From an uncultured bacterium (GTDB taxonomy: Bacteria > Verrucomicrobiota > Kiritimatiellia > RFP12 > UBA3636), in NCBI GenBank assembly GCA_902761575.1, contig CACWKU010000001.1:22435-86434 (forward strand): a stretch of 64,000 nucleotides of DNA, written 5' to 3'. Shown in pieces: positions 3,067 to 55,688 of the stretch. Both the position numbers and the translations under genes were made by a program. The notes beneath the pieces are model-generated. The model worked only from the letters and a program-made list of their open reading frames with translations, was not told the DNA's origin and did not search any database. Each line of letters opens with the position of its first letter. Position 1 is the stretch's first letter.

Positions 3067-3122
3067 ATTCTAGGCGTTGCCCCGTTTCGAAGATAGGGAC
3101 ACGGAACGCGGAAACAAGTAAA
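3067..3122 (-). promoter_or_regulatory. Tripartite upstream cassette copy 1 (putative promoter of 1..2975)
   Basis: Sense strand: TTTACT (3122-3117), N18, CCCTAT (3098-3093), N20, TAGAAT (3072-3067). The ATG is 92 nt downstream. Confidence 0.55.
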
Positions 3123-3203
3123 TTTCATTCATTCGCCCGAATCCAACCCGCGGCGCGAAGCGAACGGGTTGCCTCGCGTTCGGCCCGGTCTCCGCGTTCC
3201 CTA

Positions 3204-5243: not shown

Positions 5244-5248
5244 GGGAT

Positions 5249-10795: not shown

Positions 10796-10883
10796 CGTGA
10801 GCCTCGTGCTTTGGTTGCGTGCCCTTTCCGCACGCGTGCCGAATCCGGCCACGCGATGGCGATGGCTCCGTTCGACACCGCGA

Positions 10884-10940
10884 ATCATACCGCCGCGCCC
10901 GCCCGTTCGGCTAGGTAGATTCGCGGCGGATATCAGTAAA
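10884..10940 (-). promoter_or_regulatory. Tripartite upstream cassette copy 2 (putative promoter of 5249..10795 and the GH27 gene)
   Basis: TTTACT (10940-10935), N18, ACCTAG (10916-10911), N21, TATGAT (10889-10884). Confidence 0.55.
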
Positions 10941-10963
10941 GAGACGGCTATACGCGCACTCGC

Positions 10964-12616
10964 CTAGCGCGTCAGGTCGCGGACCTGGATGGCGTTGAGG
11001 GCGTAGTTGTTGTCGGCGCAGACGGTGATCGTCTTCGTGGGCGCGGTCGCCGTGAAGGTTCCCGTGAGCACGCCGCCGCGGGCCCAGCCGTCGCCGCAGA
11101 CCTTGATGTAGTTCGTGTCCCGGAACGACTCCTTGATCCAGACGTGCGACTTCTCGTAGCCGTTGAAGTCGCGGAAGCCGACGATCTGGACGAGGTAGCG
11201 GTGGCCGGGCACGAGGTTCCGGAGCGTCACCTCCTTCTCGCCCGCGTTCGCCCACCAGCAGTGGGCCAGCAGGTCGCGGAGCCCGCCGCCCACGACGTCC
11301 GCCGGGACCTGCGAGCCGGAGGTCGGCCCGTAGGGCCAGGCGATGTTCGCGTCGTCGATGGCGCCGTTCGCGGCGGCGAAGGGAACGGAATGGGCCGTGT
11401 AGGTGCCGCTCCCGACGGCGTACGCGCAGACGAGCGTCCCGTCCGTCCGAATCGCGCCGCCGTCGGCGGAGAGCGCCTCGCCCCGCCAGTCCTCGGTCAT
11501 CGTGAAGTCGACCGAGGTCGAGAGCTCCCTGCCGTCCGCGGTCGTGACGGTCACCTTGCAGGTGTGCGCGCCGAGCGCGACGTCCGGGATCGTGAACGAG
11601 TTGCGCGTCTTCGTCTGGTTCGAGAGGACCGGCTTCCTCGGCCCGCCGTCGAGCTCGTAGGCGACCGAGTAGGACGCGACGGGAACGGCCTTCGCGTCCG
11701 TCCCGAGGAAGATGCCGCGGACCGTGATCGTCGCGGTCCCCGGGCCGTCCGCGTTCGGCGCGGCCGACGCGTAGCCGAGCGAGGGGTCCGCCACGTGGGG
11801 CCGGCCCGCGGGGATCGCGCGGTACTTCTGCATCGCGGCCGTCAGGGCGGGCTTCCAGATGGCGGGATAGGCGGAGTCGGCCGGATGCAGGCAGTGCCCC
11901 TTCGAATCGTAGACGCCGGCCTTGTAGCAGCTCTCCTTGCAGGAGGCGTCGGGGTTGAGGAACGCGCCGCGCAGGTCCACCCAGAACACGCGACTGTTGT
12001 CGACGAACCCCAGGATGATGTCGTTGACGTCCTCGTTCACGTTGCGGACGTCGAGCGCCGCGTAGTACCGGCTCTCGAACCCGTAGGGCAGGATCGGCAT
12101 CAGGAGGATCTTCGACTCGGGGTGCTTCGCCACGATCTCGCGCAGGATGAGCCGGATCGACTCGGCGACGTCCTCCGCGCGGTCGCAGGGGTCGTCGTGG
12201 TTGTCGACGTGCTTCTGGTAGCCGTTGTTCACGCCGATCATCAGCGTGAAGTACTCCGCCTGGTAGCCGTCGAGCGCGCCGTTCCGGACGCGCCAGAGCA
12301 GGTTCTGCGCGCGGTCGCTGCCGATGCCCATGTTGATCGTCCTGCCGGCATCCCCGTCGAAGCTCAGGTTCGAGTAGACCCAGAAGTCGGTGATGGAGTC
12401 GCCGAAGAGGACGGCGTCGAACGACTTGCCCTGGCTCTGGCTGCGGTCGTCTTCGAAGTGGCGAACGCCGTACTCGTCCGTGCGACGCGCCGGCGTGCAC
12501 GGCTCCGAATCCGGGTTTGAGCCCGGCACGGGGACGTCGAGCGGTCCGCCGAACGCGGCGGTCGCGGCGACCGCGAGGATCGCCGAGGAGAGGAGCGGGA
12601 GGGCGTGGAGCTTCAT
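10964..12616 (-). CDS. Secreted SGNH/GDSL esterase with one Ig-like repeat and one 'QVR' module (550 aa)
   Basis: Track ORF. Signal peptide MKLHALPLLSSAILAVAATAAFG. Motifs AVLFGDSITDFW and GVNNG. Ends ..NYALNAIQVRDLTR. Collinear with the N-terminal 550 aa of the gene at 1..2975. Confidence 0.9.
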   Translation of the reverse strand: MKLHALPLLSSAILAVAATAAFGGPLDVPVPGSNPDSEPCTPARRTDEYGVRHFEDDRSQSQGKSFDAVLFGDSITDFWVYSNLSFDGDAGRTINMGIGSDRAQNLLWRVRNGALDGYQAEYFTLMIGVNNGYQKHVDNHDDPCDRAEDVAESIRLILREIVAKHPESKILLMPILPYGFESRYYAALDVRNVNEDVNDIILGFVDNSRVFWVDLRGAFLNPDASCKESCYKAGVYDSKGHCLHPADSAYPAIWKPALTAAMQKYRAIPAGRPHVADPSLGYASAAPNADGPGTATITVRGIFLGTDAKAVPVASYSVAYELDGGPRKPVLSNQTKTRNSFTIPDVALGAHTCKVTVTTADGRELSTSVDFTMTEDWRGEALSADGGAIRTDGTLVCAYAVGSGTYTAHSVPFAAANGAIDDANIAWPYGPTSGSQVPADVVGGGLRDLLAHCWWANAGEKEVTLRNLVPGHRYLVQIVGFRDFNGYEKSHVWIKESFRDTNYIKVCGDGWARGGVLTGTFTATAPTKTITVCADNNYALNAIQVRDLTR

Positions 12617-12690
12617 CGTGTGCCTCGTGTTGCTTGGGTTGTCGCCGCCGGGTCCGCCGCGATGGCGGGGACGCCGTCCGACAAGCCGGC

Positions 12691-12747
12691 ATTCTACCCG
12701 TACCGGCCTTTCGGCGGAAAGGGAGTCGCCCGGCGATATCGGGTAAA
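12691..12747 (-). promoter_or_regulatory. Tripartite upstream cassette copy 3 (putative promoter of 10964..12616)
   Basis: TTTACC (12747-12742), N18, CCCTTT (12723-12718), N21, TAGAAT (12696-12691). Confidence 0.55.
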
Positions 12748-12803
12748 TTTCGGCCAGTCCGCCGAAGCGGGCGCGGCGCGACGCCTCGGTTCGGGCGCCC
12801 CGG

Positions 12804-14384
12804 TCAGCGGGTCAGGATCGCCTGGAAGAAGCGGTGCTCGGCCGTGGCGGGCGCCCACGCGCCGCCGAGGTCGTCCGCGCCGAGGACCGTCACGCTGCCG
12901 TTGAGGCCGGAGGCGTCGATGGACGGCACCGTCCCGGGCGTGAACTCCGTGAAGCGGAACGCGGCCTTCCTCGCGTCCAGGTCGCCGACGCCGCAGCCGA
13001 GCAGGTACGCCGTCGTGAGATCGGTGTCCGGGTTGCCCGATTCGTCGAAGGCCATCGCGTTCACGTCCGCGCCGGCGTAGCGCACGCCGTTCGCGCTCGC
13101 CCACTTCGAGAGCCTGCGCAGCTCCGCCGTCGTGGTGGCGGACTCCGCGAAGCCGCCCGCGACGAGGCCCAGGTCGATCGGCCGCATCGCGTCCGTGATC
13201 TGCGCGTCGGGATCCTCGGGCCAGTCGAGAAACGGCGGAACGGTCGGACCGCCCTCGTCGGGAAGGCCCGTCAGCGTCAGCGCGCAGAGGCGGGGGACGG
13301 TCACCGCCCTAAAGGTCATGCCGTAGACCGTCTTCTCCTTGGTCTCGCCGCCGTCCGAGACGAGGAAGACGGCGCGAGTGCCGTCACCGAGGATCGGTCC
13401 GAGCGCGATGCCCTCGTAGACGATGATCTGCTCAAGCCCCCCGCCCCGAAACTCCAGCAGGGCGCTTCCCTTCGAGACCGCCTCGTAAGCGTCCGTCTCC
13501 GTCAGCGCGGCAATCTCCGAGACTTCCGTCGCCGCGGCAAGGGCGGCTGTCGTGATCCGGTAGACGCGACAGCGCCCGAAGGTCGTGGTGCTCACCTCGC
13601 GCTCGAGGGTCAACAGCGACCCGTCCGGCAGCGCGCACAGTCCGGAGAGGCCGCACTGGGAGAACTGGGCGAGCTGCGAGATGAGGACCGACGAGCACGG
13701 GTCGCACAGGTAGGCCCATTCGCCGGCCGACTCCCAGTCAGCCTCCGCCGACTCGCGCGTGAAGCGCGTCAGGCGTACGGCGGTGCTCACGGTGCTGTTG
13801 CCGCTCGAGGAATCGCCGTCGCACGTGAGCGCCTGCTCGTTGGCCGTCCACATCGTGAGCCCATCCGGCGAAACCGTGAGCGCCTCGAGCGAAAGGTTGG
13901 ACCGTTTGTAGTTGCGCTGGACGGCGGGAACCGGGGCGGTCCGCCCCGTGGCGACGCCGTCGAGGCCGTATTCGGCGATCGTCGGGGAGGCTTCGTCGCT
14001 GATCCACAGCGCTCCGGTCTGCGGGTCGAGGGCGATCCCCTCCGCGTCGGTGAGCGTCCCGGGCGTGAACTCCGCGCCGATCGACTGGGCGGCGATGGCG
14101 CCGGAGGCGGGATTGATCGCGAACGAAACCGGATAGACCTTCGACTTGTTGTCGCCCGCGTGGTCGCGCAGCACGTAGAAGACGCCGGCTCGCCCGGACC
14201 AGGCGATGCCGCCGCATCCGTCCTTCTCGAAGGAATACTCGGCGACCTTCTCGATCGAAAGCGAGTAGTCGGAGTCCGGACCGGCGACGATCTCTCGGCT
14301 CGCGGCGTGCGCGAGGGAGGCGCCCAGGACGATGGCGAGCGCGACGGCGGGAATGGCATGCATGGCGGGACTTGGGCTGGACAT
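12804..14384 (-). CDS. Secreted phytase-like/esterase-like beta-propeller protein with a conserved C-terminal tail (526 aa)
   Basis: Track ORF. Signal peptide ..AIPAVALAIVLGASLAHAAS. Propeller-style repeats (DAEGIALDPQTGALWISDE, LEALTVSPDGLTMWTANE, LSGLCALPDGSLLTLERE) resemble the 'esterase-like activity of phytase' family as I recall it. The last ~140 aa are homologous to the tail of 5249..10795 (..TTTAELRRLSKWA.ANGV..FFQAILTR). An alternative start exists at 14363. Confidence 0.75.
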   Translation of the reverse strand: MSSPSPAMHAIPAVALAIVLGASLAHAASREIVAGPDSDYSLSIEKVAEYSFEKDGCGGIAWSGRAGVFYVLRDHAGDNKSKVYPVSFAINPASGAIAAQSIGAEFTPGTLTDAEGIALDPQTGALWISDEASPTIAEYGLDGVATGRTAPVPAVQRNYKRSNLSLEALTVSPDGLTMWTANEQALTCDGDSSSGNSTVSTAVRLTRFTRESAEADWESAGEWAYLCDPCSSVLISQLAQFSQCGLSGLCALPDGSLLTLEREVSTTTFGRCRVYRITTAALAAATEVSEIAALTETDAYEAVSKGSALLEFRGGGLEQIIVYEGIALGPILGDGTRAVFLVSDGGETKEKTVYGMTFRAVTVPRLCALTLTGLPDEGGPTVPPFLDWPEDPDAQITDAMRPIDLGLVAGGFAESATTTAELRRLSKWASANGVRYAGADVNAMAFDESGNPDTDLTTAYLLGCGVGDLDARKAAFRFTEFTPGTVPSIDASGLNGSVTVLGADDLGGAWAPATAEHRFFQAILTR

Positions 14385-14444
14385 GGCTGTCGATTCGCGG
14401 CTTCTCCGGCGCGACCGCCGGGCGGTCGCGTCGAACGGAACCCG

Positions 14445-14473
14445 ATTTTACCCAAGCTCCGGCCGCAAGGCAA
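14445..14473 (-). promoter_or_regulatory. Sigma70-like promoter for 12804..14384
   Basis: Sense strand: TTGCCT, 17 nt, TAAAAT. The -10 lies ~60 nt upstream of the ATG at 14384. Confidence 0.45.
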
Positions 14474-14494
14474 ACGCGAGCGGCGGCGGCGCTG

Positions 14495-14523
14495 TTGCCG
14501 TGCGCGGGGCGGTCTGCTAGCAT
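14495..14523 (+). promoter_or_regulatory. Sigma70-like promoter for 14533..16236, with the -10 only 9 nt from the ATG (very short or absent leader)
   Basis: TTGCCG (14495-14500), 17 nt, TAGCAT (14518-14523), preceded by TGc (extended -10). Confidence 0.45.
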
Positions 14524-14532
14524 CCCCCCGCC

Positions 14533-16236
14533 ATGAGCACGATGAAACCCTTCGATCCCGCCGTCGCGGAGCGCCAGCCGGTCTGGCCCGCCGGAGAGAT
14601 GCCCGACCGCCAGCCCCACCAGATCGCCGCGATGACCGACGAGGCGGAAGCCCCCGGCTTCGACCCCGCCGCGCACACGGAGCCCTTCCTCGACTGGTAT
14701 CCGCCGCCCGCGAACCCCATCGGAGCCTGCGCGATCCTCGTCTCCGGCGGCGCCTACCAGAACTGCTGCGACGTGGGCCTGATCAAGGAGTGGCGCGAGC
14801 GCTTCGAGGCGCTCGGCTGCCAGTGCGTGAACTTCGTCTACCGCACGCCGTGGGCGCGCGGGATGGCGATCTACAAGACCGCGTGGGAGGACGCCCGCCG
14901 CGCCGTCCGCCTCGTGCGCTCGCAGGCCGCCGCGCGCGGCTTCGACCCGGAGCGCATCGTCACGGTCTCGATGTCCGCCGGCTCGCACCTCTCGCTGCTC
15001 CTCGCGACGGCGTCGCAGACGAAGGTCTACGAGCCCGTCGACGCGCTCGACGAGATTCCCTGCCACGTGAACGCCGCCGTCGCCTTCGCGCCGGCCGGGA
15101 TGCTCTCCGACGGCCCGATGTGCCCGAACGAGCGCGACGGCGACGGCCTCGACATCGAGCTCGACCCCGCCTTCGCGTTCGACGCGAAGACGCCGCCGGT
15201 CTTCCTCTCGCACGGCGGCGCCGACGCGTACTCGACGTTCAACTCGACGCGCATCTACCGCCGCCTGCGCGCGGCGGGCGTCCCGGCCGAGCTGCACATC
15301 CATCCCGACAAGCCGCACGGCATGTTCGGCCTCGAGCGCGGCGTCGAGTTCCTGCGCCAGATCGGCTTCCTCGGCCCGCTCGGGCCCGAGGTGCCGATCC
15401 TCGAGCGGTTCGCGTCCGACGACGCGCGCGACGGCGCCGCGGAGGCCGCGCCGATCTGGCCGGAGGGGCGCATGCCCCACCCGCAGGCGGACCAGTGCGA
15501 GCCGATCCTCGAGTGGCACCTCCCGAAGAAGCGCACGACCGACGCCATCCAGATCGTCTGGAGCGGCGGCGCCTACCTCGGCAACGACCCGGACGGCTTC
15601 GAGGTCGCGCCCGCGCGGCGCTACCTGAACGGGAAGGGCATGGCCGTCGTCACGGTCCGCTACCGCACGCCGCGCCCCTCCCCTCCCCTCGCCAAGCACG
15701 TCGCGGCGTGGCAGGACGTCCAGCGCGCGGTCCGGCTCGTCCGCGCCGGCGCCGCGGCGCGCGGCCTCGACCCGGACCGCATCGGCGTGATGGGCAGCTC
15801 CGCCGGCGGGCACCTGGCGCTGCTGGCCGCGACCGGCTCGCGCCACCGCACCTACCTTCCGGTCGACGAGACCGACGCCCTACCCTGCACCGTGCAGTGG
15901 TGCGTTGCGATCTACCCGGCCTACACGATCGAGGGCACCTACGACAACGGGACACCCGACGGCTCCAACGACCCGGCGCTGCGCCTCGCCCCGGAGCTGC
16001 CGTTCGACCCCGACACGCCGCCGATCCTCTTCGTGCACGGCGACGCGGACGAACACCCCGCCACGGCATCCGTCGCGACGTGGGAGCAGCTGCGCCGCAT
16101 GGGCGTCCAGGGCGCGGTGCACACGCTCGCCAGGCGCGGCCACTGCTTCTACTTCGCCGCCGCCCCCGGCACCGGCTCCTACACCTTCCTCGACCGGGTC
16201 TGGGAGTTCCTGACGGACAAAGGCTTCAACAAGTAG
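14533..16236 (+). CDS. Tandem-duplicated alpha/beta-hydrolase (two esterase/lipase-like halves in one 567-aa protein), apparently cytoplasmic
   Basis: Track ORF with no signal peptide. The two ~280-aa halves align to each other (TAWEDARRAVRLVRSQAAARGFDPERI vs AAWQDVQRAVRLVRAGAAARGLDPDRI). Each half carries a nucleophile elbow (SMSAGSH, GSSAGGH) and an HG(G/D)AD block. Confidence 0.85.
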   Translation: MSTMKPFDPAVAERQPVWPAGEMPDRQPHQIAAMTDEAEAPGFDPAAHTEPFLDWYPPPANPIGACAILVSGGAYQNCCDVGLIKEWRERFEALGCQCVNFVYRTPWARGMAIYKTAWEDARRAVRLVRSQAAARGFDPERIVTVSMSAGSHLSLLLATASQTKVYEPVDALDEIPCHVNAAVAFAPAGMLSDGPMCPNERDGDGLDIELDPAFAFDAKTPPVFLSHGGADAYSTFNSTRIYRRLRAAGVPAELHIHPDKPHGMFGLERGVEFLRQIGFLGPLGPEVPILERFASDDARDGAAEAAPIWPEGRMPHPQADQCEPILEWHLPKKRTTDAIQIVWSGGAYLGNDPDGFEVAPARRYLNGKGMAVVTVRYRTPRPSPPLAKHVAAWQDVQRAVRLVRAGAAARGLDPDRIGVMGSSAGGHLALLAATGSRHRTYLPVDETDALPCTVQWCVAIYPAYTIEGTYDNGTPDGSNDPALRLAPELPFDPDTPPILFVHGDADEHPATASVATWEQLRRMGVQGAVHTLARRGHCFYFAAAPGTGSYTFLDRVWEFLTDKGFNK

Positions 16237-17158
16237 CCCGAAGCGGGAACCCGGCCGACTCGCGCAGGAGCGCGGTGATGCGCGCGGAGACGGCGTCCTC
16301 CGGCGCGCGGAGGCGCAGGACGCGCGCGTTGCCCGCCGGATCGGGCGCGAAGGGCGTGGAGAGGTCCGGCGCCACGCGGACGCGCCCCGGCTCGCCAAGC
16401 CCGTAGCACTCGTTCTCGCCGTGGACCGCGAGGTCGACGGTGACCGGGTCCCAGCTCGGGCGCGTCATCCCGGGGCCGCAGTAGCGCCGGAACGCCTCGG
16501 CGAGCGGATGCGCGGCGCAGTCCGGCGGCAGGCCGGAGAGGTCGGTGACCACCTTCTCGCCGCTCTCGAACCCGACGAAGACGATCGGGCCGTCCCACGC
16601 GTCGAGGAAGCGGCGCGTGGCCTCCGGGCGTTCGCGGACGTTGGTCTCCGCGTAGCCCGCGCACCGTCCGAAGCCGCCCGCCATCGCCCAGACGGCGCGC
16701 ACCTTGCGTCGGAAGAGCGCGGGGTCCTCCGCGAGGACCTCGTCGAGCGTGTTGAAGAAGCCGATCGAGATCACGTCGACGGAGCCGTCCGCCGCCTCCG
16801 CGAAGACGCGGCGGTAGAGCTCGCGCGCGGCGCACGACGTGGCGGGGTGCGCACCCCGCCACAATGCCGCGAGCGCGGCGAGATACGGGGACTCGTTGCC
16901 GCTCGGCGGAGGCGGGTCGTCCGTGACGCCGACGGGGACGTCCTGCAGGCCCCACGCGGCGAGGACCGCCTTCACCGCGGGCGCGGCGAGCGGCGTCTCG
17001 ACGTTGCACGAGACGCCGCCGATGCGGAACGCGCCGGCGTGGCGGCGCGACTCGGCGCAAAGCAGCGCGAGCGCGGCGACGTCGTCGACGTCGCCGCAGA
17101 AGTCCGTCTCGAGAACGACGGTCGCGCCCGTGCGGGCGGCGAGGGGCTCGGGCGTCAT
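16226..17158 (-). CDS. Inosine-uridine-preferring nucleoside hydrolase (IUNH)-like protein (310 aa)
   Basis: C-terminal part of track ORF 16226..19435, trimmed to the ATG at 17158. That ATG overlaps the upstream stop as ATGA. The N-terminal Asp cluster VVLETDFCGDVDDVAAL is IUNH-like. No signal peptide. Contains the 24-nt palindrome at 16839-16862. Its 3' end overlaps the convergent gene 14533..16236 by 11 nt. Confidence 0.75.
   Translation of the reverse strand: MTPEPLAARTGATVVLETDFCGDVDDVAALALLCAESRRHAGAFRIGGVSCNVETPLAAPAVKAVLAAWGLQDVPVGVTDDPPPPSGNESPYLAALAALWRGAHPATSCAARELYRRVFAEAADGSVDVISIGFFNTLDEVLAEDPALFRRKVRAVWAMAGGFGRCAGYAETNVRERPEATRRFLDAWDGPIVFVGFESGEKVVTDLSGLPPDCAAHPLAEAFRRYCGPGMTRPSWDPVTVDLAVHGENECYGLGEPGRVRVAPDLSTPFAPDPAGNARVLRLRAPEDAVSARITALLRESAGFPLRATC
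16839..16862. repeat. Perfect 24-nt palindrome GTGGCGGGGTGCGCACCCCGCCAC inside the nucleoside-hydrolase-like CDS
   Basis: Read directly from the sequence. It encodes ..LWRGAHPATS.. in the gene frame. Confidence 0.9.
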
Positions 17159-19524
17159 CGCAGAACCAGGATGGTCGGGGGGTCGCCGTAGTGTTCGAAG
17201 CACCCGACGTCGGGGCCGCCGCCGAAGTCGCGTGGCCGCTTGCCGAGGAAGTCGCGCGCGCCGGCCATCCAGTCGCAGAGAACGCCGGCATCCCTCAGCG
17301 GCGACTTCGCGCGGGGAGACCAGTCTCCCTTGTCCGGCTTCGCGAAACGGACGCCCCTTTCGTCGCAGGCCGCCGTGATCCGCGCGGACGCGCCCGACGG
17401 ATCGCGCGCGAGGACCTCCGCGACGGCGTTGGCGCTTCCGCCCTCGACGACCGTGCTCGCGATCCGGACCACGTTGGTCAGGGACGGGCAGTTGTCGACG
17501 GGGGACTCGCACCAGTAGAGGCCGGGCGCGCCCCTGTACTTCCGGCCCCAGGGCCAGCCGTCGGTCTTCGGGAGGTTGTCCCAGAACACGCAGTTGGTGA
17601 TCGCGGGGACCGACGAGTCGTTCTGGAAGTAGACGAGGCCTCCGACGTTGCGGACGAAGGTGCAGTTCGCGAGGGCGGGGAAGCTGCCCAGCTTGAACGG
17701 GCACCGGTTGTCGACGAAGAGCGTGCTGGTGATCTTGGCGACGGACGCGTCCGGCGACCGGAAGAAGGACGGCAGTTGGCTTCCGCTCGACGAGGTGTTG
17801 ATCGTCGTCGCGGTGTCCGAAACCACGCATCGGTCGAGCCGGGCGCGGCCGTAGAAGAGCCCGGCGTTCGAGGAATCGAGCACGTTGCCGGCGATCGTGC
17901 AGGCAACGAGGCGGACGGCTCCGTTCGGGCAGTCGCCGTTGTTGGAGCCGAACGTCATTCCGGCCAGCCCGCCGCCGTCCGAGCGGAGCGTCTGGTTCCG
18001 GAAGACGCAGTTCGTAACGGTCGTGTGGCTCGTCGCGGCGACGGATGTCTGCCCCCGGCTGGCGGTCCGCTCGACGTAGCAGGCGTCGAACGCCGAATTC
18101 TCGATCCAGAGCGAACCGTAGATCGCGCCGCCTGCGTTCCACATATCGGTCCAGGACGTTCCGCACCGGACGAACTCGCATCCGTCGACGATGCCGTATT
18201 CGGACCGCGCGTCGAAGTCCGTGTGCGTTTCGTCGGGGGCGTAGATCGCGCCGCCGAAGCGCGCCGTGCAGTCGACGAAATCGCAGTCGCGGATGGTCGC
18301 CGTGTTGACCGCCGCCGAACCGTCGAGCCGGATCGCGCCGCCCTTGTCCGAGCTGCCGTTCTTGAAGGTGACGCCCCGGACGGTGAAGCCGGACGCGGAC
18401 ACCCGGAGCAGGTTGGCGGACGAATCGCCGTCGAGGATCGTCTTGCCCTTGCCCTCGCGCGAGACGACCGTCAGGTTCGCCGCGGTGACGTCGATCGCCG
18501 ACGTCGCCGTGTAGATGCCGCGGTTCACGACGACCGTCGCGCCGTTGGTCGCGCCCTCGATCTCCGCCTTGAGCCGGGCGAAGTCCCCGACCGTCGCGAA
18601 GATCTCGAAGGAAACGCCCGCCGGCAGAGAGGTCTTGCCCTTGTCGCTTTCGATCGTGACCGTGCAGACGTAGTCGCCGTCGGCGAGGTTCGGGATGGCG
18701 AACTCGGCCGTCTCGCCGGTCTGGTCGCGGAGGACAGTCACCGGATCGCCGCCGTTCAGGCTGTACGAGACGGAATACTTCGTCGCGGGGTTCCCGTCCA
18801 CGTCCGTGCCCATCCCGACGTCCGCGAGCGCGATGGTCGCCGTCCGGCGGAGCGTGGAGGCGGACAGGGAGCCGATCGTCGGATGGGAGCCCGAGATGAT
18901 CTTGCGGACCTGGACCGCGTTGAAGAAGGCGGGTGCGCCCTCGTATTCGAACGTGAACGACTCGGTCCCGTTCTCGGCCGTGAACGTTCCGACGAGGGAG
19001 CCTCCGTACTGGAAGAAATAGCCTTGCGGCCGGGCGGAACACGAATGGTCCGGAGCCCAGACTTCGGTGCCGGCGGCGCCGGTGTTGGAGACGTCCGTGC
19101 AGTGGAGAATCAACTGCACGGCGTAGGTGGCTCCCGGCGTGAGCTTCTTGAGCTGAAGTTCGTGGTCGCCGACGCTCGACCACCATCCGTGCGACAGCAG
19201 GTTGGAGTAGGCGCCCGAAACACCCGGGGGAGGGACGTTCTCGTCCCCGTGCCAATGCCACTCGCCCGAAAAGCCGAAATCGGGGCATCCGGCGACGTCC
19301 TGCCGCCCGACGAACGGAACGCCGTTGACCGCGTTGGTGACGGCGGCGCCGCCGTTCGCCTGGCACCAGGCGTACGCAAGCGTTCCGTTCGTGATGATCG
19401 AATTGCCGGACTGGCTCATCGTGACCTCCTGCCACGTGACGTACGTCGCGGCGCCGGCGACGGGAACGAACAGAGATCCCGAGAGGATGGCGATCAAAAG
19501 TGTCAGAAGGGTCTTGGATTTCAT
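17155..19524 (-). CDS. Secreted right-handed beta-helix (pectate-lyase-fold) protein with an N-terminal 'QVR' module and an Ig-like repeat (789 aa)
   Basis: Track ORF 17155..20343 trimmed to the ATG at 19524 (MKSKTLLTLLIAILSGSLFVPVAGA signal peptide). The module ends FFNAVQVRKI. Parallel beta-helix style repeats are present (..VRGVTFKNG.., ..IRDCDFVDC.., ..VTNCVFRN.., ..ITNCVFWDN..). The C-terminus ..DVGCFEH.. resembles the repeat ends in 27174..33467. Confidence 0.85.
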   Translation of the reverse strand: MKSKTLLTLLIAILSGSLFVPVAGAATYVTWQEVTMSQSGNSIITNGTLAYAWCQANGGAAVTNAVNGVPFVGRQDVAGCPDFGFSGEWHWHGDENVPPPGVSGAYSNLLSHGWWSSVGDHELQLKKLTPGATYAVQLILHCTDVSNTGAAGTEVWAPDHSCSARPQGYFFQYGGSLVGTFTAENGTESFTFEYEGAPAFFNAVQVRKIISGSHPTIGSLSASTLRRTATIALADVGMGTDVDGNPATKYSVSYSLNGGDPVTVLRDQTGETAEFAIPNLADGDYVCTVTIESDKGKTSLPAGVSFEIFATVGDFARLKAEIEGATNGATVVVNRGIYTATSAIDVTAANLTVVSREGKGKTILDGDSSANLLRVSASGFTVRGVTFKNGSSDKGGAIRLDGSAAVNTATIRDCDFVDCTARFGGAIYAPDETHTDFDARSEYGIVDGCEFVRCGTSWTDMWNAGGAIYGSLWIENSAFDACYVERTASRGQTSVAATSHTTVTNCVFRNQTLRSDGGGLAGMTFGSNNGDCPNGAVRLVACTIAGNVLDSSNAGLFYGRARLDRCVVSDTATTINTSSSGSQLPSFFRSPDASVAKITSTLFVDNRCPFKLGSFPALANCTFVRNVGGLVYFQNDSSVPAITNCVFWDNLPKTDGWPWGRKYRGAPGLYWCESPVDNCPSLTNVVRIASTVVEGGSANAVAEVLARDPSGASARITAACDERGVRFAKPDKGDWSPRAKSPLRDAGVLCDWMAGARDFLGKRPRDFGGGPDVGCFEHYGDPPTILVLR

Positions 19525-48841: not shown

Positions 48842-48943
48842 GCAAGAAATTGTACCATCCGCTCCGTGCCCTCCCCGTGCCCCTCGCTCGCCCCGCGCCG
48901 GGTCGGCGGTGGTCGTAGCTCGCATCGCTCGGTCCCGAAAACC

Positions 48944-49027
48944 AACAAACTCCCGAGTGTTTATTCAACAAACTCCCGAACGATTCTTCAACAAACTCCC
49001 GGACGAAATTTCAACAAACTCCCGAAC
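48944..49027 (+). repeat. Four direct repeats of CAACAAACTCCCGR (iteron/operator-like), period 22-23 bp, ending 3 nt before the -35 of the ATPase promoter
   Basis: Repeat starts at 48944, 48966, 48989 and 49012. The 14-nt core is identical except for R. The spacers are AT-rich and not conserved. Confidence 0.8.
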
Positions 49028-49030
49028 AAC

Positions 49031-49059
49031 TTGACATTTCCTTAGATTTCTCATAGAAT
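49031..49059 (+). promoter_or_regulatory. Near-consensus sigma70 promoter of the DUF4143 ATPase gene; the -10 ends 8 nt before the ATG (leaderless-type)
   Basis: TTGACA (49031-49036), 17 nt, TAGAAT (49054-49059), ATG at 49068. Confidence 0.6.
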
Positions 49060-49067
49060 TCGCCACC

Positions 49068-50348
49068 ATGAAACGGTACGCGAAGAGAGTGGCGGATAGT
49101 TTGCTCGCCCGAAAGCTCCAAGGGCTAGGCGCCGTTCTCGTCCAAGGGGCCAAATGGTGCGGCAAGACAACGACCTGCGAACAGGTCGCCAAGAGCGTTC
49201 TGTACATGGGCGACCCGAAGAAGCGCAAGGAGAATCTGGAGATGGCGTCGATCGACGTCACATCGCTTCTGGAGGGTGCGAAGCCAAGGCTCATCGACGA
49301 ATGGCAGGTCGCACCCGTGTTTTGGGACGCGATCCGCCACGCGGTGGACCACGCCGACGGTCCGGGGCAGTTCATCCTGACCGGCAGCGTGGTTCCCCCG
49401 AAGACCGAGGAGAAGACCCATAGCGGGACGGGGCGGATCGCCCGTCTCACCATGCGCCCGATGACGCTCTGGGAAAGCGGTGAGTCGAGCGGAACGATCT
49501 CCCTCGCCGAACTGTTTTCGGGAACGGCCCCGGATAGCGCCCGCGCCATGGGGCGCGAACTGGAGGAGATCGCGTTCCTCGCCTGCCGGGGCGGATGGCC
49601 CCAGGCGGTCCTTCGGAAGGGCGACGTCGCCCTCGACCTCGCCTTCGACTACGTGGACTCGGTCGCGGACGAGGACATCTCGCGCGTGGACGATGTGAGG
49701 CGCGACCCCGCGCGCGCCCGACGCCTTCTGCGCTCCTACGCGCGGCTCCAGGGCTCTCAGGCGAACCTCAAGGCCATCAAGCTTGACATGGCGGGCGGCG
49801 GGATCGACGCCCCGGACGAGGACACCGTCGCCTCCTACCGCGGCGCCCTCGAAAAGCTCTTCGTCGTGGAAGACGTGCCGGCCTGGTGTCCGAACCTTCG
49901 GTGCCGGACCCCTATCCGCACGAGCGGCACGCGCTGCTTCGTCGACCCGTCCATCGCTGCGGCGTCCCTCGGTCTCGGCCCGGGCGGCCTGATGTCCGAC
50001 CTGACGACGTTCGGCTTTTTCTTCGAAACGCTGGCCGTCCGCGACCTTCGCGTCTACGCAGAAGCCCTGTCCGGGAGCGTCGCCCACTACCGTGACGCCT
50101 CCGGGCTCGAATGCGACGCCGTCATCCATCTCCGCAATGGCGCCTACGGTCTCGTCGAGGTCAAGCTCGGCGGCGACCGACTCGTTGCCGAAGGCGTGGA
50201 AACCCTCCTGGCCTTCTCAGGCAAGATCGACACCGACGCAATGAAGGCGCCGGCGTTCCGTATGGTCCTTACGGCCGTCGGCGACTATGCCTACCGTCGT
50301 CCGGCCGATGGCGTCTACGTCTGTCCCCTCTCCGCTCTCTGTCCCTGA
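49068..50348 (+). CDS. AAA+ ATPase of the AAA_14/DUF4143 type (426 aa)
   Basis: Track ORF. Walker A GAKWCGKTT. The C-terminal ..HYRDASGLECDAVIHLRNGAYGLVEVKLGG.. is typical of DUF4143 proteins. Preceded by a low-GC region with a near-consensus promoter and four direct repeats. Confidence 0.85.
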   Translation: MKRYAKRVADSLLARKLQGLGAVLVQGAKWCGKTTTCEQVAKSVLYMGDPKKRKENLEMASIDVTSLLEGAKPRLIDEWQVAPVFWDAIRHAVDHADGPGQFILTGSVVPPKTEEKTHSGTGRIARLTMRPMTLWESGESSGTISLAELFSGTAPDSARAMGRELEEIAFLACRGGWPQAVLRKGDVALDLAFDYVDSVADEDISRVDDVRRDPARARRLLRSYARLQGSQANLKAIKLDMAGGGIDAPDEDTVASYRGALEKLFVVEDVPAWCPNLRCRTPIRTSGTRCFVDPSIAAASLGLGPGGLMSDLTTFGFFFETLAVRDLRVYAEALSGSVAHYRDASGLECDAVIHLRNGAYGLVEVKLGGDRLVAEGVETLLAFSGKIDTDAMKAPAFRMVLTAVGDYAYRRPADGVYVCPLSALCP

Positions 50349-50362
50349 TCCTAGCTCCGCGC

Positions 50363-50389
50363 CCGCCCCGTCGCTTCGCGCCGGGGCGG
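50363..50389. terminator. Hairpin between the convergent ATPase and SBP-permease genes
   Basis: CCGCCCCG-N11-CGGGGCGG (8-bp GC stem). No clear U tract. Confidence 0.3.
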
Positions 50390-50409
50390 AGACGGTCGGA
50401 CGCGGCGCG

Positions 50410-53025
50410 CTAGTTCTTCGCGGGCGTGCCGGCGCCGGCGCCGGCCTTGAACTCCATCCTGCTCAGGCGCTGGAGCTGAAGGACGGTGAAGCCGATCAGC
50501 ATGGAGCCGAGCACCCAGGCCATCGCCGTGGCGGGACCGAAGCGCAGGTAGCCGAACGCCTCCCAGAAGATGTGCAGCCCGACGACCTCCGTCGCGCCGT
50601 ACGGCGTGTAGGGGCCGCCGCCCGTCATCGCGAGCACGAACTCGCCGCCGCTCTTCATCGCGCCGATCGCGGCGCCGACGAAGTTGATCAGGATCAGCGA
50701 CCGGATGCCCGGCAGCGCCACGTGGCGGATCTTGCCGAAGAGGCCCGAGCCCTCGAGCTCGGCCGCCTCGTAGAGGTCGTCCGGGACGGTCTTGAGGGCC
50801 GCGAGGTACACGAGGCAGCCCGGCCCCATGCCGGCCCAGATCGTCGGCAGGAGGCACAGCAGGAGCGCCGCCTTCGGCTCGGAGAGCCAGGCCTTCGCGA
50901 GGTCCGGATAGGAGGTGCCGAACACGTAGTTCACGGCGTGGACGCAGCCGTTGATCATCTGGTTGAGGGCGCCGTAGGGACCGTAGAAGCCCTTCCAGAG
51001 GAAGATCACGACAACGCCCGAGAGCACGGCGGGGAGGTAGTAGATCGTGCGGTAGAGGATCTTGCCGCGCGGCACCTCGGAGAGGAGCAGGGCGAGGACG
51101 ATCGGCGCGACGAACCCGAGCCCGAGGTAGAGCGCGGCGTATTCCGCGGAGACGAGCATCGCGTGCCAGAACTCGCCGCTGAAGAGGACGTTGGCGAAGT
51201 TGTCGAGCCCGACCCACTGCGAGTAGCCGCGGACGTTGTAGTCCTGGAACGCCATCGCCGTGCCGCGCGCGAGCGGCCAGTAGGACCAGACCGCGAGCGA
51301 GAGCAGCGCGGGGAGCAGCAGCAGGTAGGCGGCGCCGCGCCCGGAGTCGTTGCGGCGCGAGCCGCCCGCCGGGTCGCGCGGGACCGCGGCGGCGAAGGTG
51401 CGCATCACGCGGCGGAAGACGAAGAAGAACGCGAGCGCCATGCCGACGACGACGACCGCCGCGACGCGGCGGCGGAAGCGCATCTTCTCCGGCGGCACGC
51501 GCCCGATCATCTTCTCGTCGGCGAGCGCGACGCGCTCGCGCAGGATCGCGCCGATGCGCTCGCGCGCGGCGGGGACGTCGCCGCGGCGGATGGCGTCGCG
51601 CACGGCGCCGTCGTTGCGCGCCTGGTCGATGGCGCGGGACATGTAGGTGTAGACGAGCTGGCAGTTGCGGCCGTAGGGCTCGGGGACGCCGTTCTCGCGC
51701 GCGACGGCGGCGGCCTCGTCCCAGCCCTCGGGGCAGGCGAAGGCCTCCGGGTCGAAGCCCGCCTCGCGCAGCGCGGAGGGCGGGACGAAGCGGCCGAGGC
51801 CGTTCTCGACGTAGGTGCGCGTCCGGATCTTGCGCGCCTCGCGCCCGCCCATGAACCACGCCCACTCCCACGCGAGCTCCGGCACGCGCGGGTCGCGGTC
51901 GCCGCTGCCGGCGTAGACGCCGAGCATGCCGCAGTTGTACTCGCTGCCGCGGCGGCCGGACGGGCCGCGGGGCACCGGGCCGAAGCCGATCAGGTTCGGG
52001 TCGATCTGCTGGAAGGTGTCCTGGTCGAGGTAGGAGAACCACATCGCGGAGCGCTGGCCGGGCGTGAAGGCCTCGCCCGTGTCGACGCACGTCGGGAGCG
52101 TGCCGCAGGCGTTGGTGAAGGGCTCCAGGTAGAGGCGGCAGACGAACGCGTAGGCGTCCGCCGCCTCGGGCGAGTCGAACGCGCAGCGCCAGGCGCCGTC
52201 CGCGTCGCGCTTCACGGCTCGGCCGCCCCACGAGTAGAGGAACGAGAGCGTGCTCCAGCCCGTCTCGCCGGTCGGGAGCGAGAGGCCCCAGGTCTTGTCC
52301 GCCGGGTTCGTGACGCGGCGCGCCCAGTCGAGGAGCTCGTCCGCCGTCTCCGGCACGCGGTCCGGGAGCCCCGCCTCCGAGAAGACGTCGCGCCGGTAGA
52401 AGAGCGCCATCACGAGCTGCTTGTGCGGGACGGCGAAGGTGTGGAAGTGCTCCGCGCACGGCTCGCGGCCCCATTCGCGCAGGTAGGGGCAGTCCTCGCC
52501 CCACGGGCACTCGCGGCGGATGACGTCCCACAGCACGGGCGGGAGGCGGTCGCGCAGCTCCTCCTCGAAGCGCGGGCCGGTCCGGAGCAGGTCGAGATAC
52601 TCCGGGTTGGGGAGCCGGTGCGCCTCGCGCGTCGCCTCCGGCGAGAGGCCGTCCTCCCGCTCGAGCCAGGCGTCGAGCGGCATCAGGAAGCGGTTGCGGA
52701 CGTAGGTGTCGGACTGGCGGAAGTTCACGTACATCGCGTCCGGCGCGACGTCGCCCGCAATCTGCATGAGCGGGGTCGTGTCCATCGCGCGACCGCCGGG
52801 CAGGACGAGCCCGCCGGAGGACTCGAGCCGCGCCTCGGGGTGCAGCGCGCGGAAGGCGTCCGCGACGCGGACGGAGCATTCGCCCTCGACGCCCTGCGGC
52901 TCGCCGCTGGGGACGCCCCACGAGCGCACGACGGGCGGGCCGTCCTCCGCCGCCGCGAACGCGGCGCACGCGAGGAGGACGGCGATCGCCGGCAGGCGAC
53001 GGAAGGGACGGATCGTTGCGTTCAT
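50410..53025 (-). CDS. Fusion of a sugar-type ABC extracellular solute-binding protein and a MalF-like ABC permease in one 871-aa polypeptide
   Basis: Track ORF 50410..53115 trimmed to the ATG at 53025 (MNATIRPFRRLPAIAVLLACAAFAAA signal peptide). The N-terminal ~530 aa are SBP-like. A TM segment follows (RVAAVVVVGMALAFFFVF), then a permease core with an EAA loop (DLYEAAELEGSGLFGKIRHVALPGIR). Confidence 0.85.
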   Translation of the reverse strand: MNATIRPFRRLPAIAVLLACAAFAAAEDGPPVVRSWGVPSGEPQGVEGECSVRVADAFRALHPEARLESSGGLVLPGGRAMDTTPLMQIAGDVAPDAMYVNFRQSDTYVRNRFLMPLDAWLEREDGLSPEATREAHRLPNPEYLDLLRTGPRFEEELRDRLPPVLWDVIRRECPWGEDCPYLREWGREPCAEHFHTFAVPHKQLVMALFYRRDVFSEAGLPDRVPETADELLDWARRVTNPADKTWGLSLPTGETGWSTLSFLYSWGGRAVKRDADGAWRCAFDSPEAADAYAFVCRLYLEPFTNACGTLPTCVDTGEAFTPGQRSAMWFSYLDQDTFQQIDPNLIGFGPVPRGPSGRRGSEYNCGMLGVYAGSGDRDPRVPELAWEWAWFMGGREARKIRTRTYVENGLGRFVPPSALREAGFDPEAFACPEGWDEAAAVARENGVPEPYGRNCQLVYTYMSRAIDQARNDGAVRDAIRRGDVPAARERIGAILRERVALADEKMIGRVPPEKMRFRRRVAAVVVVGMALAFFFVFRRVMRTFAAAVPRDPAGGSRRNDSGRGAAYLLLLPALLSLAVWSYWPLARGTAMAFQDYNVRGYSQWVGLDNFANVLFSGEFWHAMLVSAEYAALYLGLGFVAPIVLALLLSEVPRGKILYRTIYYLPAVLSGVVVIFLWKGFYGPYGALNQMINGCVHAVNYVFGTSYPDLAKAWLSEPKAALLLCLLPTIWAGMGPGCLVYLAALKTVPDDLYEAAELEGSGLFGKIRHVALPGIRSLILINFVGAAIGAMKSGGEFVLAMTGGGPYTPYGATEVVGLHIFWEAFGYLRFGPATAMAWVLGSMLIGFTVLQLQRLSRMEFKAGAGAGTPAKN

Positions 53026-53105: not shown

Positions 53106-53161
53106 ATGCTATCACCTCGCGCGCGTTGCGGGTAGGGACGGACCGCCCAAAAAGCGGTAAA
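53106..53161 (-). promoter_or_regulatory. Tripartite upstream cassette copy 10 (putative promoter of the SBP-permease fusion gene)
   Basis: TTTACC (53161-53156), N18, CCCTAC (53137-53132), N20, TAGCAT (53111-53106). Confidence 0.55.
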
Positions 53162-53231
53162 TCCGAGCAATGCCCGCCATTCTACCACAACTCCCCCGTC
53201 CCGCGCCAACCCGCCCCTGCGGCGGCGTGGC

Positions 53232-54626
53232 TCAGGCGAAGTGCGAGAGCGGCGCCTTGCCGATGGCGCGGACGTGGAACCCGAGCTCGAAGAGCTCGCG
53301 GCGGTCGAGGCAGTTGCGGCCGTCGAAGACGAAGGCCGGCTTGCGCATCCTCGCGAAGATCCGCGCCCAGTCGAGCTCCGGGAACTGGCGCCAGTCCGTG
53401 AGGACCGCGACGGCGTCCGCGCCCTCGACGGCCGTGTAGGGATCCTCCTCGAACGAGACGAGGTCGCCGTGGCGCGCGAGCTCCTTCCGCGCGTTCGGGA
53501 GCGCGTAGGGGTCGCACACGACGAGCTGCGCGCGCTCCTCGGCGAGCAGGTCCGCGACGACCTTCGCGGGCGTCTCGCGCGTGTCGGACGTGTCCGCCTT
53601 GAACGCGTAGCCGAGGATCGCGATGCGCTTGCCCGCGACGGTGTTGAACATCGCGTGGACCATCTCGGCGACGAAGCGCGTCTCCTGGTGCTCGTTCATC
53701 TCGACGACGGAGTTCCAGTAGGCCGCGGCCTCCGTCAGGCCCCGCTGCTCGCAGAGGTAGACGAGGTTGAGGATGTCCTTCTTGAAGCACGAGCCGCCGA
53801 AGCCCACGCCGGCGCGGAGGAACTTCGGCCCGATGCGCGAGTCGCGGCCGATGGCGCGCGCGACCTCGTCGACGTCGGCGCCCGTCTTCTCGCACAGCTC
53901 CGTGAGCGCGTTCACGCTCGAGATGCGCTGGGCGAGGAAGGCGTTGGCGGCGAGCTTCGAGAGCTCGGAGGACCAGACGTTGGTGGTGAGGATGCGGTCG
54001 CGCGGCACCCACTCGGCGTAGATGTCGACGACCGCCTCGCGCGCGGCGGCGCCGGTCGGGGTCTCGTCGGAGCCGACGAGCACGCGGTCGGGCTTCTCGA
54101 GGTCGGCGATCGCGGTGCCCTCGGCGAGGAACTCGGGGTTGGAGAGCACCTCGAAGCGGTGCGCGCCGCCGGACTCGAGCACGCGCTTCATCGCCGTCGC
54201 GGTGCGGACGGGGAGCGTGCTCTTCTCGACCACGATCAGGTCGTGCGTCGCGCACTCGCGGATCTCGTGCGCGGTCTTCTCCCAGTACTGCAGGTCGGCC
54301 GCGCGCCCGGCGCCCTGGCCGAAGGTCTTGGTGGGCGTGTTGACCGCGACGAACACGACGTCCGCCTCCGCGATCGCGGCGGGGATGTCGGTCGAGAAGA
54401 AGAGGTTGCGCCCGAGCGTCTCCGCGACGACCTCCTTGAGGCCGGGCTCGTAGAACGGGAGCGCGTCGGACTGCCACGCGGCGATGCGCTTCGCGTCGAT
54501 GTCGACGACCGTGACCTTGCGGTCCGGGCACTTTTTGGCGATCATCGCCATCGTGGGGCCGCCGACGTAGCCGGCGCCGATGCACAGGATGTTCGTGAGC
54601 TTTTTCGGGGTCTTGACGGTCTTCAT
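53232..54626 (-). CDS. ugd: UDP-glucose 6-dehydrogenase (464 aa)
   Basis: C-terminal part of track ORF 53232..55364, trimmed to the ATG at 54626 (MKTVKTPKKLTNILCIGAGYVGGPT, Rossmann fold). Catalytic-Cys block GFGGSCFKKD. Overall similarity to long (eukaryote-like) UGDH. Confidence 0.95.
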   Translation of the reverse strand: MKTVKTPKKLTNILCIGAGYVGGPTMAMIAKKCPDRKVTVVDIDAKRIAAWQSDALPFYEPGLKEVVAETLGRNLFFSTDIPAAIAEADVVFVAVNTPTKTFGQGAGRAADLQYWEKTAHEIRECATHDLIVVEKSTLPVRTATAMKRVLESGGAHRFEVLSNPEFLAEGTAIADLEKPDRVLVGSDETPTGAAAREAVVDIYAEWVPRDRILTTNVWSSELSKLAANAFLAQRISSVNALTELCEKTGADVDEVARAIGRDSRIGPKFLRAGVGFGGSCFKKDILNLVYLCEQRGLTEAAAYWNSVVEMNEHQETRFVAEMVHAMFNTVAGKRIAILGYAFKADTSDTRETPAKVVADLLAEERAQLVVCDPYALPNARKELARHGDLVSFEEDPYTAVEGADAVAVLTDWRQFPELDWARIFARMRKPAFVFDGRNCLDRRELFELGFHVRAIGKAPLSHFA

Positions 54627-54706
54627 GGTCTGGATGGTCTGGATGGTCGGGATGGTCGGGATGGTCAGAGGGTCAGAGGGTCGGGATGGTCCTGATGGTC
54701 GGGAGG
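54627..54706 (-). repeat. Tandem 8-9-nt GACCATCS-type repeats filling the whole fcl-ugd intergenic region and abutting the ugd ATG
   Basis: Sense strand: TGA cctcc CGACCATCA GGACCATCC CGACCCTCT GACCCTCT GACCATCC CGACCATCC CGACCATCC AGACCATCC AGACC ATG. Confidence 0.9.
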
Positions 54707-55648
54707 TCACCGCTCCACGCGCATCGGGTTCTCGAGGAAGTCCCTGTAGGCGAGCTTGAGGCCGTCCTCGAGGGAGGTCTTCGGCCTCCAGCCGAGGGCG
54801 ATGGAGCGGGAGAGGTCGAGCAGCTTGCGCGGCGTGCCGTTCGGGCGGGTGCGGTCCCAGCGGATCTCGCCCTCGTAGCCGACGGTGCGCGCGACGAGCT
54901 CGGAGAGCGCCTTGATCGTGATCTCGCGCCCGGAGCCGGCGTTGATCGGGTCGTCGCCGTGGTAGCGCTCCATCACGAGGAGGCAGAGGTCGGCCAGGTC
55001 GTCCACGTAGAGGAACTCGCGAAGCGGCGAGCCGTCGCCCCAGCAGGTCACGAAGGGCGCCTTCGCCTCCTTCGCCTCGTGGAAGCGGCGGATCAGCGCG
55101 GGCAGGACGTGGCTGTGCTCCGGGTGGTAGTTGTCGTTCGGGCCGTAGAGGTTCGTCGGCATCACGGAGACGTAGTCCGCGCCGTGCTGGCGGTTGAGGT
55201 AGGCGCAGTACTTGAGGCCCGCGATCTTCGCGAGCGCGTAGCCCTCGTTCGTCGGCTCGAGCGCGCTCGTGAGCAGGCAGGACTCCGGCATCGGCTGCGG
55301 CGCGAACTTCGGGTAGATGCACGACGAACCGAGGAAGAGGAGCTTCCGGCAGCCGTTCCTCCACGCGGCGTGGATCGCGTTCATCTCCAGCATCGCGTTG
55401 TCGTAGAGGAAGTCCGCCGGCGCGGCGGCGTTCGCCGCGATGCCGCCGACCTTCGACGCGGCGAGGAAGACGTAGTCCGGCCTCTCCTCCGCGAAGAAGG
55501 CGTCCGTGGCGCGCTGGTCGCGCAGGTCGAGCTCCGCGTGCGAGCGGACGACGATGTTCTCGAAGCCGCGGCGCTTCAGCGCGCGGATGATGGCGGAGCC
55601 GACCATCCCGCGATGGCCTGCGACGTAGATCTTGGCGTTTGGTTCCAT
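54707..55648 (-). CDS. fcl: GDP-L-fucose synthase (GDP-4-keto-6-deoxymannose 3,5-epimerase/4-reductase, 313 aa)
   Basis: Track ORF. Motifs [30 protein letters not shown] (Y-x-x-x-K), [11 protein letters not shown]. Confidence 0.95.
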
Positions 55649-55688
55649 GGTCTGGATGGTCCGATGGTCCGGATGGTCCGATGGTCAG
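55649..55688 (-). repeat. Tandem GACCATCS repeats abutting the fcl ATG
   Basis: Sense strand: CT GACCATCG GACCATCCG GACCATCG GACCATCCA GACC ATG (a 17-nt unit, twice). Confidence 0.9.

Follow-up and report, generated by a model that had tools for sequence, protein, structure and literature searches.

A substrate-binding domain fused to a CUT1-like ABC permease in a rumen Kiritimatiellia lineage, and the absence of its usual second permease from the locus

Gene and domain organization

In a 64,000-nt stretch of DNA from an uncultured bacterium of the class Kiritimatiellia (contig CACWKU010000001.1; hereafter the window, always meaning the whole stretch), we studied a minus-strand gene at 50410..53025 that encodes an 871-residue protein, in which a solute-binding domain is fused to the permease of an ATP-binding cassette (ABC) importer. 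The coding sequence is supported by the list of open reading frames (ORFs), Pfam matches, full-length homologues, and an AlphaFold2 (AF2) model. An earlier sequence-only reading had placed a signal peptide, a domain like a solute-binding protein (SBP), a linker transmembrane (TM) helix, and a permease with an EAA loop within this one ORF, and Pfam, hydropathy, and the AF2 model confirm each of these parts. An in-frame GTG at 53115 is an alternative start that would add 30 residues and give a protein of 901. Here, we consider the ATG the better start, since the N-termini of homologues align to it, all six genes that carry the promoter-like cassette described below share an ATGAA context, and the GTG sits upstream of the -10 box of that cassette.

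The protein begins with a Sec-type signal peptide (residues 1–26; 52948..53025, with this and the following parts all on the minus strand) containing AFA/AAA cleavage motifs, which appears as a hydropathy peak at residues 8–26 and as an N-terminal helix standing apart from the rest of the domain in the AF2 model; going by its sequence, cleavage is probable. Following this is a periplasmic CUT1-type substrate-binding domain (residues ~30–510; 51496..52938), recognized by Pfam, Foldseek, and conservation, with a match to SBP_bac_1 at residues 197–398 that scores 47 bits against a cut-off of 26. A domain of this kind had been foreseen at a length of ~530 residues, although it spans only ~480. The anchor or linker helix TM0 (residues 523–541; 51403..51459), identified from hydropathy and a continuous AF2 helix at residues 512–546, passes the chain from the periplasmic to the cytoplasmic side, and a short Arg-rich cytoplasmic linker then joins it to the six-helix core of a type I ABC importer permease (residues 564–851; 50473..51336). 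This core is UgpA/AlgM1/SugA-like according to Pfam, NCBIfam, a profile search of the Protein Data Bank (PDB), and hydropathy, and its BPD_transp_1 match at residues 642–809 gives 35.6 bits against the Pfam gathering threshold of 26.4. Hydropathy and the AF2 model agree on six core helices and a single anchor helix, and the core helices are not separated by any long loop.

The EAA loop or coupling helix (EAAELEGSGLFGKIRHVALP, residues 753–772; 50710..50769) was read from the sequence, is near-invariant in the family of fusion proteins, and is predicted to be the docking site for an ABC ATPase. Its coupling motif is EAA-X3-G-X9-V-X-LP, where a V replaces the I of EAA-X3-G-X9-I-X-LP. Among the NCBIfam models, UgpA offers the best resemblance (78.5 bits against an equivalog cut-off of 335), followed by MalF (48.7 against 392), and judged by these scores, the fusion protein resembles both equivalog families without being a member of either. 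While the permease with its EAA loop stands as described earlier, its designation as MalF-type does not, with NCBIfam and the PDB profile search both placing it closer to UgpA/AlgM1. No fusion-specific Pfam or NCBIfam model matched the protein.

Within the binding domain there is a helical, family-specific insertion (window 52441-52509), in which the near-invariant C173 and C179 (C-P-x4-C-P) are followed by an invariant H193-x-H195 pair; C281 and C455 are likewise conserved. From their sequence pattern, C173/C179 and H193/H195 are candidates for a disulfide or for a metal site of the Cys2His2 type, and the conserved cysteines of the insertion fit with the periplasmic location of the domain.

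Predicted structure and structural neighbors

The AF2 model of the fusion protein, built with 96 homologues as input, has a mean predicted local distance difference test score (pLDDT) of 82 and a predicted TM-score (pTM) of 0.80, with the binding domain mostly above 90. As the sequence-only reading had suggested checking, AF2 gives a single continuous chain, with a long helix crossing the junction between the binding domain and the permease. A Foldseek search with the binding domain, which has a two-lobe fold of the binding-protein kind, returned GacH, MalE, and the cycloisomaltooligosaccharide- and beta-glycoside-binding proteins (probability 1.0, target TM-score 0.6–0.73), though the sequence identity to MalE-like structures is only 12–20%. 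The identity of these structural neighbors suggests, by analogy, an oligosaccharide as the ligand. For the permease half, the profile search against PDB sequences ranked AlgM1 first (1e-24), SugA second (7e-16), and then MalF. OpuA (PDB ID: 7ahc) was also among the structural matches.

Distribution of the fusion family

Collinear homologues of about 860 residues number more than 100 in protein clusters, and these share 51–64% identity over 95–99% of their length with all parts in the same order. The collinear alignment spans the signal peptide, the binding domain with its Cys/His insertion, the anchor helix, and the permease, and the window protein keeps every invariant column. Hosts of the fusion include the Kiritimatiellia, Lentisphaerae/Victivallales, Phycisphaerae and other Planctomycetota, Verrucomicrobiota, Cloacimonadota, Sumerlaeota, Omnitrophota, and a few further groups. 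A genome often has two or three copies, and glycoside hydrolase genes are frequent neighbors. The earlier view that sugar-type fusions are unusual in diderm bacteria is not supported, given these many fused relatives and the MalE-MalF precedent in Bdellovibrio discussed below. In a scan of species representatives (one genome per species), we recorded at least 534 candidate relatives, and the family loci treated from here on are the best 80 of these; most cover the full length, with the remainder cut by contig ends or assembly breaks.

Moreover, 6 contigs from rumen samples that were assembled independently encode a protein identical to that of the window, and the window DNA is ~95% identical to locus L006, a contig of the rumen metagenome-assembled genome (MAG) RUG13889. 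These data bear on whether a sequencing or assembly artefact has joined separate binding-protein and permease genes. Nothing was found in support of this, and a missed stop, frameshift, or misassembly is rejected by the collinear homologues with their conserved anchor helix and linker, by the identical protein in independent assemblies, and by the AF2 helix that runs unbroken through the junction, such that we regard the chance of an artefact as practically nil.

A long second permease is the constant partner, and the ATPase is not

In the family loci, a second permease gene coding for 630–680 residues directly follows the fusion gene, or precedes it in the Chthoniobacterales, and is adjacent or within ~3 kb in about 75 of the 77 informative loci. 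This protein has one N-terminal helix, a periplasmic domain of ~340 residues, and a MalG-like core, and by fold it matches SugA/SugB, MalG, and AlgM2. The ~340-residue domain is predicted with very high confidence at most loci (for instance L092 3152-5173 and L091 6001-8007), and no full-length match to it was found among solved structures. A helical motif (Y..I..YN..HGT.Y.SF) occurs two or three times in this domain and is also present in beta-galactosidases of glycoside hydrolase family 42 (GH42).

The second permease is absent at three loci, these being L006 (from the species of the window), L009 (a second copy in a Victivallis MAG), and L077. In contrast, of the 62 loci whose downstream sequence extends for 3.5 kb or more, just 3 have a gene for a MalK-type ATPase, and since this gene is so rarely adjacent, a missing ATPase is ordinary for the family. 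Many CUT1 systems share a separately encoded ATPase of the MsiK/MalK "multitask" type. The sequence-only reading had viewed the lack of both partners as the anomaly, and this holds for the second permease but not for the ATPase: the true anomaly at the window locus is the absent second permease. In type I importers generally, encoding the partner subunits side by side is customary rather than strictly required. Elsewhere in the family, the verrucomicrobial locus L070 (9977-15884) has a gene for a 464-residue free paralogue of the binding protein directly upstream of those for an 810-residue fusion and a 619-residue long permease. From its sequence, this operon encodes a free and a tethered binding domain together, which recalls the soluble MalE observation in Bdellovibrio (see below).

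Paired and orphan loci in the lineage of the window

The high-GC clade to which the window belongs has both paired and separated forms of the module. The operon is intact in L092 (72.6% guanine plus cytosine, GC), where the gene for a fusion protein 89–90% identical to that of the window is followed, after 1 base, by those for a 673-residue second permease and MalK. The next nearest relatives with fusion and second permease paired are L086, L087, and L088 (60–64% identity), with or without MalK. As a lone gene, the fusion is intact in the window, L006 (97%), and L001 (86–88%), each time in a different neighborhood. Conversely, other loci hold the partner without a fusion gene upstream. Foremost among these is L091, a 136-kb cattle-rumen contig (70.4% GC), in which a second permease and MalK (89% and 93% identical to those of L092) lie next to a divergent PfkB gene and have their own TGGTAGAAT -10-like box upstream. 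In L095 (70.9% GC), a gene of the ADP-ribosylglycohydrolase family precedes the second permease and MalK, while in L096, the second permease is preceded by a non-coding stretch of 227 nt that includes a cassette-like TTTATACCTGTTTTTGCCCG...TGGTAGAAT, and the contig ends ahead of any MalK gene.

Homology between the window and L092 stops ~20 nt before the stop codon of the fusion gene, a clean break with no remnants on either side. Indeed, a search of the window, L006, and L001 for traces of the second permease or MalK in the sequence that follows the fusion gene gave only cross-matches between permease domains, and nothing beyond such cross-matches was found when traces of the fusion gene were sought upstream of the orphan permease in L091. 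An abhydrolase gene that adjoins the fusion gene in the ~87%-identical L001 (12607-14344) lies 34 kb away from it in the window (14499-16238), which points to extensive local rearrangement between the related genomes. The simplest and most likely reading is that the operon was split and both halves were kept, and judging from these sequences, a locus with the second permease and MalK is most likely present in the same genome.

On this basis, we consider it likely that the product of the fusion gene is one of the two membrane subunits in a heterodimeric, CUT1-like type I ABC importer of the oligosaccharide type, with the binding protein built in, and that its operon has been split so that the partners are encoded elsewhere in the genome. 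As a rival explanation, the protein might be a self-sufficient homodimer of the OpuA/GlnPQ kind that uses a shared ATPase from elsewhere and needs no second permease. The SBD-permease (substrate-binding domain-permease) fusions that are well studied to date do work as homodimers, OpuA is among the structural matches, orphan fusion genes recur in the window, L006, L001, L009, and L077, and the gene of the window has its own promoter-like cassette. Yet the second permease is near the fusion gene at almost all informative loci, the ~89%-identical orthologue in L092 is still paired with it, and the same clade has orphan second-permease loci, two of these with MalK. Moreover, the permease half shows no orphan-specific changes, three conservative substitutions in the protein as a whole being the only exception. 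We therefore consider a homodimer unlikely.

Selection on the orphan fusion gene

For the fusion gene, the ratio of nonsynonymous to synonymous substitution rates (dN/dS) is 0.23 between the window and L006 and 0.32 between the window and L001, with lower values (0.17–0.19) in the permease half. Neighboring genes from the same genome pair gave 0.15–0.35, this range excluding a 940-residue secreted-protein gene whose gapped alignment made its value invalid. The orphan fusion gene is under purifying selection. This bears on another explanation, by which the gene is a relic on its way to loss, its partners deleted and its transport function gone. Such decay would agree with the absence of partner genes from the window and related contigs, the somewhat raised number of deviations at conserved columns, and the rearranged surroundings among close relatives. 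We nonetheless hold it to be improbable, as three lineages, at 86–97% identity, retain the full open frame of 871 codons, dN/dS is comparable with that of neighboring genes, neither the EAA loop nor any family-invariant residue has been lost, the cassette is conserved in L006, and most of the deviations are older than the split.

Returning to the split importer, several observations weigh against it. By tblastn, neither a second permease nor an ABC ATPase was detected anywhere in the 64-kb window, as the sequence-only reading had noted for the vicinity of the gene, and none is found on the related contigs L006 and L001. That L091, L095, and L096 might come from the species of the window rests on GC content, matching divergence, promoter type, and, in the case of L091, the rumen as sample type. 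In addition, dN/dS is higher in the binding-domain half (0.31–0.42), and the window protein departs from the family at 24 of the 339 columns in which 85% or more of the members agree, which puts it at about the 90th percentile. These deviations are mostly conservative, however, and 23 of them are substitutions, of which 17 predate the split, as they are common to the paired L092 orthologue. Lastly, a literature search for transport or binding data on any member of the fusion family found none.

Proposed mechanism

For the split importer that we favor, we infer a partner locus in the window's own genome, assembly of the proteins into one complex, and a carbohydrate as substrate. After Sec export, the binding domain of ~480 residues would lie in the periplasm, tethered by TM0, and the chain would re-enter via the Arg-rich linker into the six-helix core, with the EAA loop engaging a MalK-type ATPase. 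The long second permease would supply the other half of the translocation pathway, and the ATPase would usually be encoded elsewhere. Here, the ~340-residue periplasmic domain of the second permease might dock or cage the tethered binding domain, in a manner comparable to the MalF P2 loop with MalE. In the rumen lineage, an ancestral operon of fusion gene, second permease, and MalK would have been broken right after the stop codon of the fusion gene, leaving this gene alone behind its own promoter-like cassette and the second permease and MalK at another locus.

Comparison with known importers

The fused MalE-MalF of Bdellovibrio bacteriovorus, the one characterized precedent for a sugar-type system in a diderm, belongs to a maltose/maltodextrin transporter, a CUT1 system in which the fusion fixes a 1:1 ratio of the two parts (Licht et al., 2019, Res Microbiol 170:1-12, as relayed in PMC6906923). 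According to that same account, additional soluble MalE still stimulates the ATPase activity, and the P2 loop of MalF is what holds MalE (PMC6906923). Compared with the Bdellovibrio protein as it is described there, the window protein is similar in that its CUT1 binding domain is joined N-terminally to the first permease, and a heterodimeric permease with a MalK-type ATPase is likewise what we propose for the fusion family. There are also clear differences. Unlike a MalF-type permease, with eight helices and a P2 loop, the window permease is of the six-helix UgpA/AlgM1/SugA type and has no P2 loop; the binding domain is larger and of a different kind, spanning ~480 residues and including the Cys/His insertion; and the partner in the fusion family is no normal MalG, having 630–680 residues with its ~340-residue periplasmic domain.

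Among permeases of known structure, those closest to the permease half of the window protein are from the AlgM1M2SS alginate importer of Sphingomonas sp. A1 and the LpqY-SugABC trehalose importer of mycobacteria. In these CUT1 systems, however, the binding protein is free or anchored by a lipid and the permeases are of normal size, with no fusion and no large periplasmic domain. OpuA (OpuABC) and GlnPQ are from different ABC importer families, for osmolytes and amino acids, with homodimeric permeases and, in GlnPQ, two tandem binding domains. The principle of a covalently tethered binding domain is established for both (PMC3971661). In contrast, the window permease is CUT1-like with a single binding domain, and as a distinct second permease gene is the constant partner, the permease of the fusion family would be heterodimeric. 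As with the CUT1 systems that share an MsiK/MalK-type ATPase, the ATPase gene is seldom next to the permease genes (3/62), but unlike these, the lineage of the window has its second permease separated too, which is rare within the fusion family (3/77 loci).

The fusion principle is thus already known from Bdellovibrio, but the fusion family itself appears undescribed, and our literature search for a description of it found no paper. More tentatively, and with rather less than even confidence, we suggest that the fusion and long-permease module of the PVC (Planctomycetota-Verrucomicrobiota-Chlamydiota) group and neighboring phyla may be a distinct, uncharacterized class of type I ABC importer, in which the large periplasmic domains of both subunits would cooperate on large oligosaccharides, and that the split halves in the rumen lineage may be joined functionally by the same type of cassette. 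In guts, soils, and oceans, much of the breakdown of complex and sulfated polysaccharides is due to Kiritimatiellia, Lentisphaerae, Planctomycetota, and Verrucomicrobiota, and little is known about how these groups import the products. The fusion family, which is abundant in them, represents a natural 1:1 tethered binding-domain design for sugar-type importers, and its partner permease adds a new periplasmic domain. As a lesson for annotation, a fusion gene found by itself, or a long permease found with MalK only, may be one half of a split system and need not indicate a transporter that is incomplete or dead.

Local context and the promoter-like cassette

Directly after the stop codon of the fusion gene, where other genomes have the second permease, the window contains a 1.56-kb segment (48852..50409) that in L006 is replaced by 58 unrelated bases. 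Being absent from this ~95%-identical relative, the segment is strain-variable and unrelated to transport. It carries a convergent plus-strand gene (49068..50348) that Pfam identifies as an AAA_14/DUF4143 ATPase, not an ABC ATPase, and with 65% GC in its region against 68–74% nearby, this agrees with the convergent low-GC ATPase locus noted before. Also inside the segment, at 48940-49030, a ~22-nt unit with CAACAAACTCCCGRAC is repeated in tandem, in three to four copies that lie within the AT-richer spacer just upstream of the AAA_14/DUF4143 gene.

On the other side, UDP-glucose 6-dehydrogenase and GDP-fucose synthase genes lie upstream of the fusion gene on the same strand. In L006, this cluster has insertions, with GlmS between the fucose synthase and the UDP-glucose dehydrogenase, and RmlD-like and RmlC-like genes between the dehydrogenase and the fusion gene; the inserted stretches are L006 707-2742 and 4125-5700, corresponding to window 54606-54711 and 53214-53223. 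By its gene content, the cluster looks like a strain-variable locus for surface-polysaccharide precursors. Separately, a 9-nt tandem repeat, GATGGTCKG, occupies both intergenic regions around the GDP-fucose synthase gene (54624-54709 and 55637-55687).

Given this neighborhood, one may ask whether the tethered domain is a membrane-bound sugar sensor, or acts with the products of the nucleotide-sugar genes, instead of serving in uptake. The fusion gene does follow these genes directly on the same strand in a strain-variable cluster, to which L006 adds GlmS and the RmlD/RmlC-like genes. This context, however, is conserved in neither L001 nor L092, the fusion gene carries its own promoter-like cassette, and there is full conservation of its permease core and of the loop that docks the ATPase, neither of which would be needed in a sensor, so we rate such moonlighting as very unlikely and retain the split importer. 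Like the nucleotide-sugar genes of the window, neighbors at other loci, such as GH28 and beta-helix genes in L002, PfkB and KduI in L091, and SIS/GKRP and BadF-type kinase genes in L001, give weak and inconsistent clues to the substrate, for which a uronate or pectin-type oligosaccharide is a guess.

The promoter-like cassette itself, TTTACC-N3-TTTTTG-N9-GTnCCTA-N~22-TAGCAT (53106..53161, minus strand), stands ~80 nt upstream of the ATG and is conserved upstream of the L006 orthologue. It was delineated by pattern searches and a six-copy alignment, having emerged only from a comparison of upstream regions combined with a gapped pattern; generic repeat finding over the window did not reveal it, and exact-word searches (up to 3 mismatches) gave the local copy only. 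The consensus is ATTTACC-N3-TTTTTG-N9-GTnCCTA-N~22-(GG)TAGnAT, followed by a leader of 30–110 nt and the conserved ATGAA start. The fusion gene had been assigned copy 10 of this cassette, tying it to a secreted-enzyme regulon. The cassette is real and common to genes for signal-peptide proteins, although six strict copies rather than ten could be verified in the window, all on the minus strand, with TTTACC at 12747, 19647, 21890, 36533, 46554, and 53161. A -10-like box at +50/51 accompanies 6 of the 10 TT[TA]ACC sites in the window. All six cassette-led genes encode proteins with signal peptides, including a GDSL lipase-like and a beta-helix protein and others without a Pfam match, and the cassette may mark a regulon or may simply be the form that strong promoters take in this organism. 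Two apparent copies inside the fusion ORF (50587-50631 and 52237-52276; 64–70% identity) were rejected as chance-like.

Farther away, the first 19 kb of the window (1-19000) contain families of direct repeats of ~300 nt with 60–85% identity within large ORFs (for example 676-975, 985-1284, 6210-6509, 6519-6818, 7407-7706, 8997-9296, and 18584-18883), which probably encode repeated domains of big secreted proteins. Two paralogous blocks, 1315-2893 and 10974-12540, are situated ~9.6 kb apart.

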